IMG/VR virus record: IMGVR_UViG_3300032293_001706
Span: 96,001 to 160,000 of that record
DNA: 64,000 bases
Strand: one strand, 5' to 3'
Source: a virus
Shown piece after piece: positions 52,000 to 63,947 of this stretch (its first letter is position 1; every line of letters begins with the position of its first letter). The translations under genes were made by a program, and so were the position numbers. The notes beneath the pieces are model-generated. The model saw only the letters and a program-made list of their open reading frames with translations, did no database searches and had not been told where the DNA came from.

Positions 52000-54222
52000 A
52001 TGGCGTGTTTAAGCGGTGTTACTAGCGGTTCAGGATGGTCTTATGTGGACTGTGTTGGAAATTTTCAATCAGGGGATACTATTGGGTTGTCAGTTTGTTA
52101 TGACCCAAATCCTATATCGGGGTATTTACCTATTAACATAACGCAATCAGAAGTAGAGTGTACTCCAACTAATTATCAATTTTCTGCTTGTTGTAATGGG
52201 GCATTATATAAAACAACCTCATTTTCGACTTTCTCAGCAGGAACTTCTTATTACATTGAGAGTGATTTATTTACAGGTTGTACAACTGTTGTAACATATT
52301 CAGGTGCGGGAACAAGTATAAACTTAACATCAACAGGAGTATCATATGCAAATTGTTCTTTATGTGTTGCAGAAACACCTTGTCCACCTGCAAGTGACTT
52401 CCAATTCAGGTCATGTTGTGACCCAACCGTTACATTTATTATAAATGATTATGTTGCGGAATTAACATCGGGTGAAGTTTATTATATTATAAGTACAGGT
52501 TTCACAGGTTGTGCCGAAGTAATACCATATACAGGTTTAGGTGAAAGATATGATGCAACTTCATTAACAGGTCCTTATGATGATTGTGCATCTTGTATGG
52601 ATGATTATCCTTGTTATTGTGTTTGTAAAAATTATTTATTAAATAATACACAAGAAGTTGATACCTATGTTTCATTTTTTGATTGTTATGGTAATGAACT
52701 TACAATTACACTACCGGCAGGAAATAGTCTTGAAATTTGTGCTTGTGAAGATACCGTATTAGTTCCACCTGGAGTTATTTTAACCGATTTAGGCGATTGT
52801 ACTTTTGAAACTCAAACACCTACACCTACACCAACAGTAACACCAACACCAACTGCAACACCAACTTATAGCGCTTGTAGTGAACAGTTTTGTTTAAGAA
52901 CTGAATATTCACAATTTAGTAATTATGACGGACAATATACAAGTGGTGGGACATATAACTCAAGACCATATTATACAGGTTCAACAACAGGAACAGTATA
53001 TTATGATGGAACACAATGGTGTTTATCAAATACTTTAGGTGGTAGTTGTGTTTTATATGGTAAGACACCTTGTTTTTCTAACTGTCCTGACATTGATGAA
53101 GAAATTTGGACCGTAGGAGTTTGTCCGACACCAACACCTACTCCAACACCAAATATTTGTGTAACAGTAGACTTTAATGCGTTATTTGATTGCGATTATA
53201 CACCTGATGTAACGGTAACGTGTGAAACACCAACACCTACTCCAAGTGTAACACCCACAATAAATCCTTGTATTGGAGTTGATGCCGATATTGATATCAT
53301 TAATACCTCACCTACTCCAACACCTACTCCAACAGTAACACCCACACCTTCATTAGTTAGAAGTGTTAATGTGTCAGGGGCAACCACATACACATTAGTT
53401 GATACAGAATTTATGTGTAATTTCGTTAGAAAAATACAAGATTGTGATACAAGTGAAATACATTACGTTTCACAAGGTATAAGAACTATTAATAACACAA
53501 TAGTATCAACAGGACAAACCTTTAGTGCTTATGTTGACGGTGTTTATAAATGTTTCACATATTTAGGAATAGTATATGACCAAAGTGCTACTCTAACACT
53601 AAATTCTATTACCAATTCATTTACAGCTTGTACAGCTTGTACAAACTCATTAACACCAACTCCGACACCAACAGCAACTGTAACACCTACAATAAGTGTT
53701 ACACCATCAGTTACACCATCAGTTACACCATCAGTTACTCCATCAGTTACTCCAACATTAACTCCGACATTAACTCCGACACCGACTAAGACAGTAACAC
53801 CAACACCTTCAATAAATTCTTCAGCAACACCTACTCCAACACCGACTAAGACACCAACTCCAACACCGACTAACACACCGACTAACACGATAACACCAAC
53901 ACCAACGAGAACACCAACAAAAACACCGACACCTACACCATCAGTGACATCAACAGTCACTCCGACACCGACATTAACGCCAACACCAACATCTACTTTA
54001 ACTCCAACACCATCACAACAACCAATTAATTATTTAGTTCAAAATTGTACTGAAAGTAACATTGCGTATGTAAGTAATTTAGGTGGATTAACAATTAATA
54101 TTGGTGATAAAGTTAAACTTTCAGGTACAGGATATGAAGGTTGTTGGGAAGTAATTAACTATACATTAAGTGTTCCATCAACAACAATAATCTCGGTTCA
54201 CGCAACATGTGATTGTAACTAA
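52000..54222 (+). CDS. Cys-rich fibre/decoration protein with multiple Pro-Thr tracts
   Basis: Repeated F..CC..(Y/F)..C..V....Y..C..C modules alternate with PTPTPT linkers. Confidence 0.65.
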   Translation: MACLSGVTSGSGWSYVDCVGNFQSGDTIGLSVCYDPNPISGYLPINITQSEVECTPTNYQFSACCNGALYKTTSFSTFSAGTSYYIESDLFTGCTTVVTYSGAGTSINLTSTGVSYANCSLCVAETPCPPASDFQFRSCCDPTVTFIINDYVAELTSGEVYYIISTGFTGCAEVIPYTGLGERYDATSLTGPYDDCASCMDDYPCYCVCKNYLLNNTQEVDTYVSFFDCYGNELTITLPAGNSLEICACEDTVLVPPGVILTDLGDCTFETQTPTPTPTVTPTPTATPTYSACSEQFCLRTEYSQFSNYDGQYTSGGTYNSRPYYTGSTTGTVYYDGTQWCLSNTLGGSCVLYGKTPCFSNCPDIDEEIWTVGVCPTPTPTPTPNICVTVDFNALFDCDYTPDVTVTCETPTPTPSVTPTINPCIGVDADIDIINTSPTPTPTPTVTPTPSLVRSVNVSGATTYTLVDTEFMCNFVRKIQDCDTSEIHYVSQGIRTINNTIVSTGQTFSAYVDGVYKCFTYLGIVYDQSATLTLNSITNSFTACTACTNSLTPTPTPTATVTPTISVTPSVTPSVTPSVTPSVTPTLTPTLTPTPTKTVTPTPSINSSATPTPTPTKTPTPTPTNTPTNTITPTPTRTPTKTPTPTPSVTSTVTPTPTLTPTPTSTLTPTPSQQPINYLVQNCTESNIAYVSNLGGLTINIGDKVKLSGTGYEGCWEVINYTLSVPSTTIISVHATCDCN
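53653..54015 (+). repeat. ~120-aa Pro-Thr/Ser mucin-like repeat
   Basis: TPTPTPTATVTPTISVTPSVTPSVTPS...; includes tandem gttacaccatca 12-mers. Shorter tracts at ~52816, 53128, 53227 and 53305. Confidence 0.9.
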
Positions 54223-58945: not shown

Positions 58946-58978
58946 AAAGAGGACCAAAAGTCCTCTTTTTCTTTTTTG
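58946..58978 (+). terminator. Rho-independent terminator
   Basis: AAAGAGGAC-CAAAA-GTCCTCTTT 9-bp stem followed by TTCTTTTTTG. Confidence 0.75.
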
Positions 58979-58981
58979 TTA

Positions 58982-58988
58982 TATTTAT
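58982..58988 (+). promoter_or_regulatory. TATTTAT putative late promoter
   Basis: Upstream of the ATG at 59007. Confidence 0.55.
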
Positions 58989-59006
58989 CATTAACAAGAC
59001 CTTTAA

Positions 59007-60206
59007 ATGGAAGAAGAAATTATATTTGAATTGTTAGATGATTTTACATCTGGTGGGAAGTTATATTATGATGATGAATATAAGTCAATATGGATGATAA
59101 ATCCAGATACAAAACAATGGATATTTGAATTCAAAAAAACAGGAACTTTATGGTATTCTTATCCGGTTTTTACCAAAATTTTTAAATACGTTTCGATGGA
59201 TTATCCTGATTTTAACCCGTATATTAAAAAGTGGGTTGAAAGAATCCTTCAAAAGGAGGCTAAAAACACCCAATCAATGGGGGGTCAGGAGACATTTTGG
59301 GTTGAAAGAATCCTTCAAAAGGAGGTTAAAAACACCATTGAACTTAATGGCTCAGCCGCCCCAACGGTTGAAAGAATCCTTCAGCAAGATAATAATTTAG
59401 ACTTAAATGAAAACATTAATGAAAGTGAAGAATCCCCATTAGTTGATGAAGAAATTATATTTGAATTATTAGATGATTTTACATCTGATGGGAAGCTATA
59501 TTATGATGATAAAACGGAATCCATATGGATGATAAATCCAGATACAAAAGAATGGATATTTGAATTCGAAAAATCAGGAGATTTATGGTATCATTATAAA
59601 GTTTTTGAAAGTATTTTTAAATACATTTCGATGGAATATCCTGATTTTGAACCATACATAACAAAGTGGGCTGAAAGAATCCTCCAAAAGGAGGTTAAAG
59701 ACACCGCAAACTCGTATTGGGTGCTGCCGATGGCCGCTGAAAGAATCCTTCAAAAGGAGATTAAAGACACCATTTTTGTGCAACATCTGCAAAACTCTGG
59801 AGTTGAAAGAATCCTTCAACAAGATAATAATTTAGACTTAAATGAAAACATTAATGATGGCGAAGAACCATCATCAGTTGATGAAGAAATTATATTTGAG
59901 TTGTTAGATGATTTTACTAATGATTATGATAAGTATCAATCTTATAATGGAGATACTTTTCTTATTAATCCTAATAAGAAAGATTGGTTAATAGAAATAG
60001 ATGAAGAAAACTATTTATGGTATAACAAAGATATATTTGTAAAAATTTTCAAATACGTTTCGATGGAATACCCTGATTTTGAACCATATATAACAAAGTG
60101 GGTTGAAAAAAAAATTAACATTAAAATTAAAGAAACTTATGATATTTTCTGGGGTAGAGGGGGTAAAATAATAGATGTAATTACAAATGGATTTAAAGAA
60201 ACATAA
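59007..60206 (+). CDS. Three-module protein containing two in-frame CRISPR-like arrays (399 aa)
   Basis: Three copies of an EEIIFELLDDFT...KW domain. Copies 1 and 2 are followed by (VERILQKEVKDT+10 aa)n; linkers read QDNNLDLNENIN. Confidence 0.7.
   Translation: MEEEIIFELLDDFTSGGKLYYDDEYKSIWMINPDTKQWIFEFKKTGTLWYSYPVFTKIFKYVSMDYPDFNPYIKKWVERILQKEAKNTQSMGGQETFWVERILQKEVKNTIELNGSAAPTVERILQQDNNLDLNENINESEESPLVDEEIIFELLDDFTSDGKLYYDDKTESIWMINPDTKEWIFEFEKSGDLWYHYKVFESIFKYISMEYPDFEPYITKWAERILQKEVKDTANSYWVLPMAAERILQKEIKDTIFVQHLQNSGVERILQQDNNLDLNENINDGEEPSSVDEEIIFELLDDFTNDYDKYQSYNGDTFLINPNKKDWLIEIDEENYLWYNKDIFVKIFKYVSMEYPDFEPYITKWVEKKINIKIKETYDIFWGRGGKIIDVITNGFKET
59235..59383. CRISPR. CRISPR-like mini-array A1 (2 full repeats, 1 partial, 2 spacers)
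   Basis: Repeats GTTGAAAGAATCCTTCAAAAGGAGG(C/T)TAAAAACACC at 59235 and 59301, partial at 59367. Spacers CAATCAATGGGGGGTCAGGAGACATTTTGG and ATTGAACTTAATGGCTCAGCCGCCCCAACG. Confidence 0.65.
59670..59818. CRISPR. CRISPR-like mini-array A2 (2 full repeats, 1 partial, 2 spacers)
   Basis: 36-nt repeats at 59670 and 59736, partial at 59802. Spacers GCAAACTCGTATTGGGTGCTGCCGATGGCC and ATTTTTGTGCAACATCTGCAAAACTCTGGA. Confidence 0.65.
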
Positions 60207-60217
60207 TGAGAAAAAAA

Positions 60218-60249
60218 GTTGGTTATGTTAAAAAATTGGCCTATATTTG
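60218..60249 (+). promoter_or_regulatory. Bacteroidota sigma70-type promoter with no downstream ORF
   Basis: GTTG (60218-21), N20, TATATTTG (60242-49). Confidence 0.6.
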
Positions 60250-60254
60250 TAATA

Positions 60255-60426
60255 GGAAATCGATGAAAAAAGTCCAAAGGTTTTGAGGACATAAAAATAA
60301 AAAACCTGATTGGAAAGGTTGAAGGTAACCCTCCCAATGAACCCGAAAGAAAATCTTCTTAGCAAGTCTACCGCGAACTAGAGTTAGACAAAAAAAGAGG
60401 GCCAAAAGTCCTCTTTTTCTTTTTTG
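60255..60426 (+). ncRNA. Candidate structured small RNA (~170 nt)
   Basis: Lies between a promoter and a terminator, with only a 7-codon ORF after its first ATG. Stems GTCC/GGAC (60272/60287), ATTGG..GGTT/AACC..CCAAT (60309-60338) and GTCTA/TAGAC (60366/60385). Confidence 0.45.
60392..60426 (+). terminator. Rho-independent terminator (paralog of 58946)
   Basis: AAAAAGAGGGC-CAAAA-GTCCTCTTTTT followed by CTTTTTTG. An A-to-G change relative to the first copy keeps pairing as G-U. Confidence 0.75.
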
Positions 60427-60429
60427 TTA

Positions 60430-60436
60430 TATTTAT
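60430..60436 (+). promoter_or_regulatory. TATTTAT putative late promoter
   Basis: Upstream of the ATG at 60455, in the same context as 58982. Confidence 0.55.
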
Positions 60437-60454
60437 AAGTAATAAGACCTTTAA

Positions 60455-61528
60455 ATGGAAGAAGAAATTATATTTGAGTTATTAGATGATTTTACATCTG
60501 ATGGAAAGTTATATTATGATGATGAATATGACTCCATATGGATGATAAATCCAAAAACAAAAAAATGGATATTTGAATTCGAAAAATCAGGAAATTTATG
60601 GTATTCTTATTCAATTTTTAACAAAATTTTTAAATACGTATCGATGGAATTCCCTGATTTTGAACCATACATAACAAAGTGGGCTGAAAGAATCCTCCAA
60701 AAAGAGGTTAAAGACACCTTTCATGGTCTTCGAAACTTTCCCGCTCCAGTTGAAAGAATCCTTCAAAAAGAGGTTAAAGACACCCGGATGGACAGCTATA
60801 CATCAACAGCGGTGGTTGAAAGAATCCTTCAAAAAGAGGTTAAAGACACCTCATCCAGTTCGCTTTTCTTAGGGAAGGTGGTTGAAAGAATCCTTCAAAA
60901 AGAGGTTAAAGACACCGAACATTTTGAAGAGCGTTTCATTGAAGTGGTTGAAAGAATCCTTCAAAAAGATAATAGTTTGGATTTAAATGAAAGTTCACCG
61001 ATTAAATTAATCCAATTATTTAAAGAAGTTTTAATTGAAGGTCAAATAGATGGAACATTAGTTAATAAAACTTATGATGGTTATAATGTTAAATTTATTT
61101 TATCTAAACATGCCGATGAAAGAAGAAATAGAGTTGATAATTATTCAGAAATAACATATGAAGAACTAATATCCGCAATTGAGGAAGCAATTCCTAAGAT
61201 TGTTGATAAAGCGTTTAAAACACATAAACGAAATATTGTAGGACCTGTTAACAATGGAATGATATATATTAGAGATAGTAAGACAGGACAATTAAATAAA
61301 AAAGACGCTCAAGAGTTTTTCATCTACAAAAAAGAATCAGAATTACAAATTAAATGTAAGGTTTTAAATTTTGATAAAAATAAGGGTTATATTGAAATTA
61401 TAATAAAAACTTTAATGAAAAGTCGTACAGATAAATTAAATATGAACGACCCGAAAAGAAACACCCTGTATTTAAATATTTTTGAAAACATTAATAACTT
61501 TGAGAATTATTTTATAATAGAAATATAA
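60455..61528 (+). CDS. Paralog with one conserved domain, an in-frame CRISPR-like array and a distinct C-terminal domain (357 aa)
   Basis: MEEEIIFELLDDFTSDG...KW, then (VERILQKEVKDT+10 aa)x4, the linker LDLNES, and a C-domain with SKHADERRNR. Confidence 0.7.
   Translation: MEEEIIFELLDDFTSDGKLYYDDEYDSIWMINPKTKKWIFEFEKSGNLWYSYSIFNKIFKYVSMEFPDFEPYITKWAERILQKEVKDTFHGLRNFPAPVERILQKEVKDTRMDSYTSTAVVERILQKEVKDTSSSSLFLGKVVERILQKEVKDTEHFEERFIEVVERILQKDNSLDLNESSPIKLIQLFKEVLIEGQIDGTLVNKTYDGYNVKFILSKHADERRNRVDNYSEITYEELISAIEEAIPKIVDKAFKTHKRNIVGPVNNGMIYIRDSKTGQLNKKDAQEFFIYKKESELQIKCKVLNFDKNKGYIEIIIKTLMKSRTDKLNMNDPKRNTLYLNIFENINNFENYFIIEI
60683..60967. CRISPR. CRISPR-like mini-array B (4 full repeats, 1 partial, 4 spacers)
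   Basis: GTTGAAAGAATCCTTCAAAAAGAGGTTAAAGACACC at 60749, 60815 and 60881, a GCTG/CTCC variant at 60683, partial at 60947. Spacers TTTCATGGTCTTCGAAACTTTCCCGCTCCA, CGGATGGACAGCTATACATCAACAGCGGTG, TCATCCAGTTCGCTTTTCTTAGGGAAGGTG and GAACATTTTGAAGAGCGTTTCATTGAAGTG. Confidence 0.72.
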
Positions 61529-61599: not shown

Positions 61600-62208
61600 A
61601 TGGATAAAAAAATTGCAAAATTAAAAAATTCCCCAAAAGTGTTGGGACTCGACATCAGCACAAAAGTTATCGGATTCGCTTTATTCGACATTCAAAGTAA
61701 AAAACTTCTCGAATTAACACACTTTTCGCCTGTAATCAAACCACAACCTGAAGATAAAATAGAGGAGATGATTTTGAAGGTAAACGCCTTTATCAAAAAA
61801 CTTCAAGATTACAAAGATATGGGAATTACTAAAGTTATTATTGAGGAACCATTGTTAGGTTCAAATAACGTTCATACGGTTGGAACATTAATGAGATATA
61901 ATGCAATGATAACAAAATCAATACATGATGCATTGAATATCGTGCCAAATTATATCTCAACATATAATTCAAGAAAGTATGCTTGGCCACAACTTATGAG
62001 TAAAAACGACAAAAATAGGGAAACTCTATTTGGTGGTTATCCTAAAGATATTGACAAAAAACAAGTGGTTTGGGAACTTGTTTCAAAAGAAGAACCACAA
62101 ATAGTTTGGTTGTATACGAAAAACATGACATTAAAAAAAGAATGTTTTGACCAAGCTGACGCATATACCTGTGTCAGGGGGTATATGAAAATGAATTCTT
62201 TTTGGTGA
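61600..62208 (+). CDS. ruvC: RuvC-like Holliday junction resolvase
   Basis: VLGLDISTKVIGFA, VIIEEP and DQADA catalytic motifs; 202 aa. Confidence 0.75.
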   Translation: MDKKIAKLKNSPKVLGLDISTKVIGFALFDIQSKKLLELTHFSPVIKPQPEDKIEEMILKVNAFIKKLQDYKDMGITKVIIEEPLLGSNNVHTVGTLMRYNAMITKSIHDALNIVPNYISTYNSRKYAWPQLMSKNDKNRETLFGGYPKDIDKKQVVWELVSKEEPQIVWLYTKNMTLKKECFDQADAYTCVRGYMKMNSFW

Positions 62209-62239
62209 TTTGATATCAAGATTTTTTTTATTATCTTTC
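62209..62239 (+). promoter_or_regulatory. Near-consensus Bacteroidota promoter
   Basis: TTTG (62209-12), N19, TATCTTTC (62232-39), upstream of the primase GTG. Confidence 0.45.
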
Positions 62240-62244
62240 TTAAA

Positions 62245-63168
62245 GTGGAAGATAACGCAATTTTAGTTGAACTTATTGAAGGTGTTTTTGGTAAAATAAG
62301 GAAACATTACCCAAACCACGGACAATTAAGTGTTGATTGTCCTGTATGTTCATATGATATAAAAGGTTTAGATAAACTTGATGGTAAGGGCAACTTAGAG
62401 ATTAATTATGCGGAGCATGTTTTTAAATGTTGGGCTTGTGGAGAATCAAATAACACACAAGGACATTTGGGATATCTTATTGATAGATATGGGAAAAAGA
62501 AAGACAAAGACCTATATAAATTAATTAGACCAGATGAATTCATAAGAACAGAAAAGAAATATGACAAATTAAAACTACCGAAAGATTTCAAATTAGCAAC
62601 CGACGGGAACAAATATCATATCCCGTTTAGGGAAATGAGGAATTATCTTAAAAGTAGAGGGATAACAGATGAAATGATTAAAAAACATAACATTGGTTAT
62701 TCTTTGGAAGGTGAATATGCATTTAGGGTTATCATCCCATCTTATGATAAAAATGGGGAATTAAATTATTTTACAGGTAGGTCATGGAATCCAAAATCAA
62801 AATTAAAATATAAAAACCCTGAAGCTGAGAAACAAATAGTTATCTTTAATGAAAATCTAATTGATTGGGAAAAAGACATATATATCTGTGAAGGACCATT
62901 CGATTCACTTTTTTTGGAAAACTCAATTGCTCTTCTCGGTAAAAAATTATCTGATACCTTGTTTACTGAATTGTATGAAAAAACGAAGAAGGATATAATT
63001 ATTGTTTTGGATTCTGATGCTTGGGAAGATTCCAAAAAAATATACTTTAATTTAAGTGGCGGAAAATTATATGGGAGAATTAAAGTTGTTAAACTTCCTG
63101 AAGGAAAGGACATTGCGGATTTAAGAGGTAATATACTACCTGAATACTTTATACAATTAGAAAAATGA
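62245..63168 (+). CDS. dnaG: DNA primase (zinc finger plus TOPRIM)
   Basis: CPVC..CWAC zinc ribbon, YLKSRG, RVIIPSYD, FTGRSW, ICEGPFD and LDSDA motifs. Confidence 0.85.
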   Translation: MEDNAILVELIEGVFGKIRKHYPNHGQLSVDCPVCSYDIKGLDKLDGKGNLEINYAEHVFKCWACGESNNTQGHLGYLIDRYGKKKDKDLYKLIRPDEFIRTEKKYDKLKLPKDFKLATDGNKYHIPFREMRNYLKSRGITDEMIKKHNIGYSLEGEYAFRVIIPSYDKNGELNYFTGRSWNPKSKLKYKNPEAEKQIVIFNENLIDWEKDIYICEGPFDSLFLENSIALLGKKLSDTLFTELYEKTKKDIIIVLDSDAWEDSKKIYFNLSGGKLYGRIKVVKLPEGKDIADLRGNILPEYFIQLEK

Positions 63169-63947
63169 TGGAAACAATAATAGAATTATCAAAATTTAAC
63201 GATGTTAAATATTTTGACGGACCACACAAATATTATGTAGGAACAAAAGAATATGTTTCGGCGACAACCTTTATTGGGAAATACAAGGCAAAATTTCAAA
63301 CACAATTATTGGCTGAAAAATATGCTGAAAAAAGAGGATTAGACGTTAACGAGGTAATTGCAGAATGGGAATTAAAGAAAGACATATCAACGGTAAAAGG
63401 AACTCTTCTTCATAATATGGCTGAGAATTGGTGGAATAATAAATCATTTCCATACGATTCATCATTAGTTATTAAAAAATTTGGTTATGACATAATCGAA
63501 GAGAACTATAGAAAATGTGAAACAATTTTTCATAGATTTTATGAAGATGCAAAACAAAATCTAATACCTGTAAAAATGGAATTGGTTGTTTGTGACCATG
63601 ACTATGAAATTGCCGGAATGGTAGATTGTTTATTCTATAACAAAAAGTCAGGAATGTTGGAGATTTGGGATTATAAAACAAATAAAGAAATTAAAAGTAG
63701 TAACAATTTTGGTAATAAAATGTTACATCCAATTTCCCATCTTGATGAGTGTGAAATGAATACATATTCACTTCAGTTGGGTTTATATAAACATATTATT
63801 CAAAAAAATACAAATTTAAATATTGGTAACTGTTATTTGTTGTGGATAAATGAAAATAACGATACTTATAAGATATTCACTTGTAAGGATTTATATGCTG
63901 AATTAAAATTAATGATAGAAGATTATGAAAATACCAAGAACTCGTAA
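63165..63947 (+). CDS. PD-(D/E)XK (RecB-like) exonuclease
   Basis: KGTLLH, ELVV, IAGMVDCL, IWDYKT and YSLQLGLY motifs; no Cas4 four-cysteine Fe-S pattern. Confidence 0.8.
   Translation: MMETIIELSKFNDVKYFDGPHKYYVGTKEYVSATTFIGKYKAKFQTQLLAEKYAEKRGLDVNEVIAEWELKKDISTVKGTLLHNMAENWWNNKSFPYDSSLVIKKFGYDIIEENYRKCETIFHRFYEDAKQNLIPVKMELVVCDHDYEIAGMVDCLFYNKKSGMLEIWDYKTNKEIKSSNNFGNKMLHPISHLDECEMNTYSLQLGLYKHIIQKNTNLNIGNCYLLWINENNDTYKIFTCKDLYAELKLMIEDYENTKNS

Follow-up and report, generated by a model that had tools for sequence, protein, structure and literature searches.

The window analysed here, a stretch of 64,000 nucleotides, belongs to a lake jumbo phage and comprises positions 96001-160000 of its virus record, which is 190,552 nt long, 63% complete and has a GC content of 30%; records of related phages extend up to 270-304 kb, and Bacteroidetes hosts have been predicted for freshwater jumbo phages with a bS21 gene (PMC9723584). 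Two genes on its plus strand are the subject of this study: ORF1 (59007-60206, 399 aa), which strings together three modules of a domain and an array with acidic linkers between them, and ORF2 (60455-61528, 357 aa), in which one domain is followed by a four-spacer array, a linker and a 181-aa C-terminal cargo (60983-61528), which other phages encode as a separate protein of 175 aa and which matches no family. Both are preceded by a plus-strand cassette of a terminator hairpin and a TATTTAT motif, the latter 18 nt upstream of the start codon of ORF1 (cassette at 58946-59006; second copy before ORF2 at 60392-60454); the motif is enriched immediately upstream of structural genes and is presumably a late promoter. 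The domain, about 78 aa long, occupies 59007-59240 (copy 1, with its last codons in leader position), 59442-59675 (copy 2), 59877-60107 (copy 3, the most diverged) and 60455-60688 (copy 4, in ORF2), all on the plus strand. Across the whole record we counted five genes with 11 copies of the 78-aa domain, nine arrays and 26 spacers, six of the arrays lying outside the window in three further genes.

A preliminary description of this DNA had reported three arrays with a strict 66-nt period, each directly after a copy of a domain of about 76 aa. The period proved to be exact at 59235-59402 (array 1), 59670-59837 (array 2) and 60683-60982 (array 3), all on the plus strand, and the domain (77-78 aa) does immediately precede each of them, its final codons running into the first repeat. 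One unit consists of a 36-nt repeat and a 30-nt spacer, that is 66 nt or exactly 22 codons. Our recount likewise gave eight full repeats, three half-degenerate terminal repeats (described before as truncated) and eight spacers, with the same spacer GC content of 115/240 against 30% in the genome. In array 1 the repeats lie at 59235-59270 and 59301-59336, with a half repeat from 59367, and the spacers (59271-59300, 59337-59366) have no source in 125 host-family genomes; array 3 contains four full repeats, and its half repeat begins at 60947. A decayed 36+30+36 unit (60102-60203, plus strand) also follows domain copy 3 and continues in frame to the stop codon. The central hairpin attributed to the repeats exists, but it is weak (about -3 to -8 kcal/mol). 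The repeat starts within the last helix of the domain, so that leader and first repeat are both coding. As in CRISPR arrays, direct repeats of fixed length alternate with unique spacers of fixed length, growth is polar from the leader, and the distal repeat is degenerate; in line with the earlier statement that the window contains no cas gene, no cas9, cas1 or cas2 ORF was found beside the arrays. In a second assembly array 3 spans an equal distance, and hence no length variant was seen. Searches of Rfam, Pfam and PHROGs returned nothing informative for domain or arrays, a metagenome scan with the 20-nt repeat core gave five single matches, none of them with an array, and BLAST against cultured phages yielded chance-level matches only.

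The origin of the spacers was approached from one whose translation resembles part of RelA/SpoT. Degenerate scanning across species genomes produced 13 matches, 11 of these in Bacteroidota and one, in a lake Bacteroidia genome, exact in DNA; the remaining arrays were then searched against this genome and its relatives. Eighteen of the 26 spacers could be mapped, ten exactly (30/30), four with one mismatch, two with two, and one each with three and four. Seventeen correspond to chromosomal genes of freshwater Bacteroidia and one to another phage (a viral contig whose ERF gene it matches at 28/30 positions). For sixteen spacers the best match lies in a single genus (8 genomes), spread over G008, G066, G001/G009 and G004, where an exact 30-mer would occur by chance with 4e-11 per spacer. 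Source genes, named via NCBIfam and Pfam, include thrS, panB, relA/spoT, nuoE, accA, paaC and genes for type IX secretion-signal proteins. All four spacers of array 3 (plus strand) were matched, at 30, 30, 30 and 28 of 30 positions: the one at 60719-60748 to G066, where it runs antisense to a DUF255 thioredoxin-domain gene; that at 60785-60814 to G001 and G009, sense and out of frame in a PKD/type IX secretion-signal protein gene; that at 60851-60880 again to G001 and G009, antisense to thrS; and that at 60917-60946, the one with 28/30, to G001, sense and in frame in an Ig/SprB-repeat type IX secretion-signal protein gene. Of the plus-strand spacers in array 2, the one at 59772-59801 agrees at 27/30 positions with G066, antisense to a gene resembling acyl-ACP desaturase, and the one at 59706-59735 has no source in the 125 host-family genomes. 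Two spacers outside the window are 20/30 alike; they map to different genes and, as far as tested, do not have a common ancestor.

Relative to the source gene, ten spacers are sense and eight antisense, all frames are represented, and only 5/18 keep the frame of the gene they came from, close to an expectation of 22%. The matches end at the spacer edges, apart from chance bases. The preliminary description had proposed searching for external matches and a shared flanking motif; the matches were found, but no motif appeared in the 10 nt flanking 17 protospacers on each side, a small sample with flanks taken from related genomes. With both orientations and all frames represented, the spacers derive from double-stranded DNA, mainly of the host chromosome. 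Their first positions are biased (A at 2, A/T at 3), a preference absent from host II-C spacers; a start bias shared with the latter was tested for and not found.

All eight spacers of the window are free of stops in the frames of 59007-60206 and 60455-61528, as had been claimed, but the chance of about 2% originally attached to this is too low for the window alone: shuffling gives 1.2%, but real source DNA as background (host genes of 51% GC, 0.75 stop-free per 30-mer) about 10%. Taken by themselves, the eight spacers of the window lend little support to an open-frame rule. Genome-wide the rule is significant (26/26, p ~5e-4), with in-frame stops in 0/26 spacers of this record and 6-12 in the other frames, and it recurs in relatives, where 0/320 distinct spacers contain an in-frame stop against 97-186 in other frames; these 320 spacers came from 128 related loci, found at the DNA level irrespective of frame, and form 274 independent clusters. 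Ordinary II-C arrays of the host family, taken as control, have stops in 36/83 spacers, and 9/83 are 29 nt long. Units with an in-frame stop are thus nearly absent. One exception was met in a related lineage (L283), where the leader-proximal spacer carries an in-frame TAG, which is to be expected if insertion is frame-blind and selection acts later. In the repeats third codon positions are most variable, with a pN/pS of 0.36; synonymous-site conservation in the repeats was discounted, being confounded by the search patterns. For homologous spacers pN/pS is 0.45 in the phage frame (45 pairs) as against 1.1-1.25 in non-mirror frames, and the third-position excess with one pair per cluster (30 independent pairs) is 41/103 and not significant (p = 0.10). 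Translation of the arrays is well supported by these patterns, a function of individual peptides is not, and the signs of selection on the spacer peptides themselves are weak. In 7 or 8 of the phage's nine arrays the open frame could be explained by read-through to downstream cargo alone.

A profile of the domain recovered 448 clusters at 50% identity. Among the best 150 homologues 122 contain the repeat motif, most commonly at a spacing of 22 residues. Towards the C-terminus of these 150 proteins the match to the repeat, out of 11, declines from 8.5 to 5.8 and the 22-aa period becomes less frequent (68% to 29%), and unit sharing between phages increases in the same direction. A polarised gain of spacers, which the preliminary description had suggested looking for, emerged from the comparison of L015 with L016, which differ by whole units at the domain end and have the distal units in common. 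Judged from these comparisons, the newest units adjoin the folded domain. Most relatives examined possess one gene with older arrays, situated among metabolic genes and devoid of linkers, and the present phage is unusual in its many copies with fresh arrays. Relatives hold up to ~24 units in frame with little but older units downstream; their old units diverge gradually and resemble a protein repeat.

At the level of sequence, these data establish the capture of DNA into a translated gene, in all likelihood filtered by selection: 30-nt pieces, mostly of the host chromosome and occasionally of another phage, now separate direct repeats of 36 nt. The proposal of the preliminary description that a protein-coding gene acquires sequence in the manner of spacers is borne out by the exact external matches and by whole units that are gained and lost with polarity. 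We favour, with a probability of roughly 0.6, the explanation that these are genuine acquisition arrays doubling as the reading frame of phage genes, into which host Cas1-Cas2 would write peptides of a host-facing protein. Host Cas1-Cas2 of the kind known from Bacteroidota types II-C and VI-B would probably act in trans, reading the last codons of the domain as leader together with the repeat and integrating DNA fragments freed by infection. Insertion would in all likelihood be frame-blind, with stops and off-length inserts purged by selection at the protein level.

Host Cas1-Cas2 would be the most economical integrase. Of the phage records, 34 were searched for Cas1 (completeness of at least 90% in five), 10 for Cas2, 5 for reverse transcriptase and 7 for tyrosine integrase, in each case without a match, and the conserved neighbour genes offered no integrase candidate. 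Cas1 is present in 19/125 host-family genomes, in systems that mostly are II-C with 46-47-nt repeats and 30-nt spacers, only one having the 36+30 arrangement; in the host genus, one genome carries cas9-cas1-cas2 with a 47-nt repeat. II-C acquisition usually leaves a PAM. In F. columnare a 36+30 array without Cas1 of its own is filled in trans, also with DNA of the host genome, and cross-talk across differing repeat lengths has been doubted (PMC8092290). The mismatch in repeat length, the lack of a visible PAM and the start bias count against the assignment to host Cas1-Cas2.

What the captured DNA adds to can be described from structure prediction. The domain, for which copy 4 (60455-60688) served as example, is predicted confidently (pLDDT ~95) as an alpha/beta fold of a helix, four strands and two helices, the last of which is extended by the first repeat in the model. 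In a fold search no solved chain scored above Z 4.7, short of the level of 5, and a viral library gave only uncharacterised phage proteins; the absence of a clear solved match for a predicted structure does not demonstrate a new fold. For the tail, the prediction is of low confidence (short helices and coil, pLDDT mostly < 60), and a solenoid fold of the repeats was supported by neither of two models. The acidic linkers at the module joints, among them that at 59403-59441 (plus strand), carry L/I-x-E motifs, the site of the T4 prohead protease (PMC9026906) and here candidate cleavage sites. From these motifs and the upstream cassettes we infer polyproteins that are made late, packed into the head and cut into modules. 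The T4 internal head proteins, cleaved by gp21 after L/I-X-E, share the motif at module joints and are likewise small and variable, with possible ejection into the host cell (PMC9026906); unlike the present proteins they lack an acquisition array, no sequence relation is evident, and the resemblance here is one of motifs only. Since the gene of the relatives is single-copy, lies among metabolic genes and has no linkers, packaging into the virion would not be general. With odds slightly better than even, the product would be a folded domain of 78 aa whose flexible tail consists of short helices and arbitrary 10-residue peptides; in this phage, 10/11 copies belong to L/I-x-E-linker polyproteins, for which cleavage in the prohead and ejection together with the DNA are probable. 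The benefit might be that a host-facing protein varies heritably, in a kind of peptide lottery played against the host's defence or recognition proteins, although we would give this somewhat less than even odds. It seems nearly an even bet, if not quite, that throughout this freshwater jumbo phage family the host's adaptation machinery serially writes random 10-residue peptides from the host chromosome into a phage protein, that useful ones are kept, and that the arrays record the bacteria infected.

That acquisition diversifies a phage protein, as the preliminary description had it, holds as regards in-frame capture, but the peptides may be useful or merely tolerated. The arrays might instead be a decoy or a tolerated by-product, the last codons of the domain serving host Cas1-Cas2 as a substrate, whether by accident or as a sponge by which acquisition is drawn off from the host's own array, with functionless peptides whose frame is kept for the protein downstream. 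We regard this as unlikely. In its favour, the spacer peptides are arbitrary with respect to source frame, the tail is predicted at low confidence, most arrays here precede cargo or more domains, independent pairs yield no significant selection on spacers, and 11 copies of leader and repeat in one genome would fit a sponge. It has to contend, however, with relatives whose in-frame units, up to ~24, have little but older units behind them, and with repeats that are conservative at the protein level; moreover, coding capacity would be superfluous in a decoy.

An integrase other than host Cas1-Cas2, either an unrecognised phage-encoded enzyme or a non-Cas host enzyme with a 36/30 ruler, could lead to the same outcome and overlaps with the account that we favour. 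The lack of a visible PAM and a start bias unlike that of II-C would agree with such an enzyme, as would the fixed geometry of repeats that diverge between lineages (in one related lineage 36+30 is kept with a repeat only 15-17/36 identical) and the occurrence of Cas1 in only one of the five host-genus genomes listed. Nevertheless, none of the phage records searched supplies a candidate, whether Cas1, Cas2, reverse transcriptase, tyrosine integrase or a neighbouring gene, and geometry and repeat ends fit Bacteroidota CRISPR arrays, the host genomes at hand being incomplete. We consider a different integrase rather unlikely.

The possibility that the arrays also yield guide RNAs, raised in the preliminary description, concerns their opposite strand, which would have to be transcribed and processed to Cas13b-type guides against host transcripts or rival phages. 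The minus-strand repeat is indeed 21-22/36 identical to the repeat at a real cas13b locus (shuffle p 0.004-0.01), and, seen from the apparent leader, the half repeat lies at the corresponding end in both; the exact 66-nt unit matches the VI-B geometry of 36+30 with a poly-U loop (10.1101/092577), which is present on the minus strand. As VI-B and II-C repeats are themselves 21/36 identical to each other, the likeness to VI-B is not specific. Of the complementary GUUG/CAAC ends, one fits and the other is off by one base (GGUG, minus strand). Phage arrays targeting the host have been reported (PMC7162821), and one spacer here matches another phage. Yet a profile that does detect G303 found no Cas13b among the 125 host-family genomes and the 20 phage records searched, nor in this record (63% complete) or five relatives at least 90% complete, and the genes adjoining the arrays of this phage are others; the 10 sense and 8 antisense spacers show no strand bias, as opposed to 27/36 mRNA-favouring Cas13b spacers (10.1101/092577); no Bacteroidota-type promoter faces array 3; and old repeats drift synonymously. 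On these grounds, we take it that the arrays do not act as Cas13b guides, and the dual use is highly unlikely.

The type VI-B array of F. columnare, filled in trans by II-C Cas1-Cas2 (PMC8092290; 10.1101/092577), has the 36-nt repeat and 30-nt spacer in common with the phage arrays, as well as the lack of its own cas1/cas2, polar growth and the drawing of spacers from both strands, the host genome included; the cas13b locus examined here adds a similar repeat and equal leader polarity. The phage arrays differ in being phage-borne, without cas13b and with no visible PAM, in one repeat end (CACC, not CAAC), in their protein-coding leader and array, and in spacers filtered for an open frame. They also occur without the cas9, cas1 and cas2 that accompany type II-C arrays along with a tracrRNA, and would acquire like a VI-B array while belonging to neither type VI-B nor II-C. 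Compact orphan arrays of huge phages (PMC7162821) likewise are short, reside in jumbo phages without acquisition genes and contain some host-chromosome spacers, but have been treated as non-coding sources of guides, whereas here the array is the reading frame of a gene, with no effector and no strand bias.

An ordinary protein tandem repeat with fast-diverging linkers, to which the gradual divergence of old units in relatives would point, or a diversity-generating retroelement target can practically be dismissed, the former being refuted by spacers identical at 30/30 positions to unrelated host genes, in several frames and on both strands, and by whole-unit gain and loss, where the preliminary description would have expected from such a repeat no external matches, gradual divergence and no change of whole spacers, and the latter having neither a template or second copy in the genome nor a reverse transcriptase in the 5 phage records searched. 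Diversity-generating retroelements do likewise vary a defined stretch of a phage protein by a dedicated mechanism; here, adenine-specific differences to a template repeat are absent, and whole foreign 30-mers are added by which the protein grows.

We found no description of translated CRISPR-style arrays, or of protein variation by in-frame capture of host DNA, in the literature searched, subscription journals being largely outside its coverage. If the favoured explanation is true, it would constitute a route to diversity distinct from retroelements, inversion and recombination, in which foreign DNA is captured in fixed 22-codon steps, every 30-base piece adding a new 10-residue peptide to a phage protein, and a process of immune memory would become a writer of protein sequence. 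Even with neutral peptides, the arrays would assign uncultured jumbo phages exactly to their hosts and preserve the order of past infections, in the present case several species of one Bacteroidia genus, and they indicate that coding sequence is able to serve as leader and repeat. Genes with translated arrays are easily overlooked: in the protein collection, ORF2 is present only as its last 183 residues, having been shortened, probably, by the masking of its array as CRISPR.

Array genes of the same domain family occur elsewhere in the phage. One of them, on the stretch L001 (8434-10611), adjoins head genes and holds at least five spacers; since its first domain starts upstream of the first ATG and the reading frame is open there, this gene probably uses a non-ATG start codon, and the C-terminal 260 amino acids of its product resemble a nucleotidyltransferase (phrog_36119). 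The fifth gene (L003:19219-20000), which is cut by the contig end, has one domain and an array in which eight fresh spacers alternate with repeats that do not differ from one another. Sources were traced for 8/8 of these spacers, and the gene is the nearest to the single-copy gene of relatives. The same stretch also carries an ORF of 403 amino acids (L003:547-1758), whose N-terminus resembles IS200/IS605 TnpB.

In the window, array 2 and array 3 each open with a repeat (59670-59705 and 60683-60718) that carries the same two variant bases, which the later repeats lack; this is a hint of recombination between domain copies. ORF2 is represented as a gene in the protein collection only by positions 60977-61528 (entry P0152), and this partial entry suggests that the array is masked during gene calling. 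Ahead of ORF2, the terminator hairpin (60388-60418) matches stretches in several genomes of the host family (L096, L101) at 94-97%; the sequence is of low complexity and the match may be due to chance. Downstream of ORF2 (61600-63947) lie a RuvC-like ORF, a primase and a PD-(D/E)XK nuclease, with no apparent tie to the arrays.

An array of a related lineage (L283:733-900) has a divergent repeat and an unchanged 36+30 rule; here, an in-frame TAG in the leader-proximal spacer terminates the protein. A further array of this lineage is found at L284:8390-8620.

The best candidate for the adaptation module is a type II-C-like locus with adjacent cas1 in a host-family genome (L261:8212-10753), comprising 39 repeats of 36 nt and spacers of 30 nt. 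Another 36+30 array, with 33 repeats, was observed in a Bacteroidia genome (L260:5935-8083) near an ORF of 1126 amino acids, which matches Cas13b only weakly; this is possibly a divergent type VI system. A cysteine-rich protein of 740 amino acids with long Pro-Thr tracts is encoded at 52000-54222 of the window.
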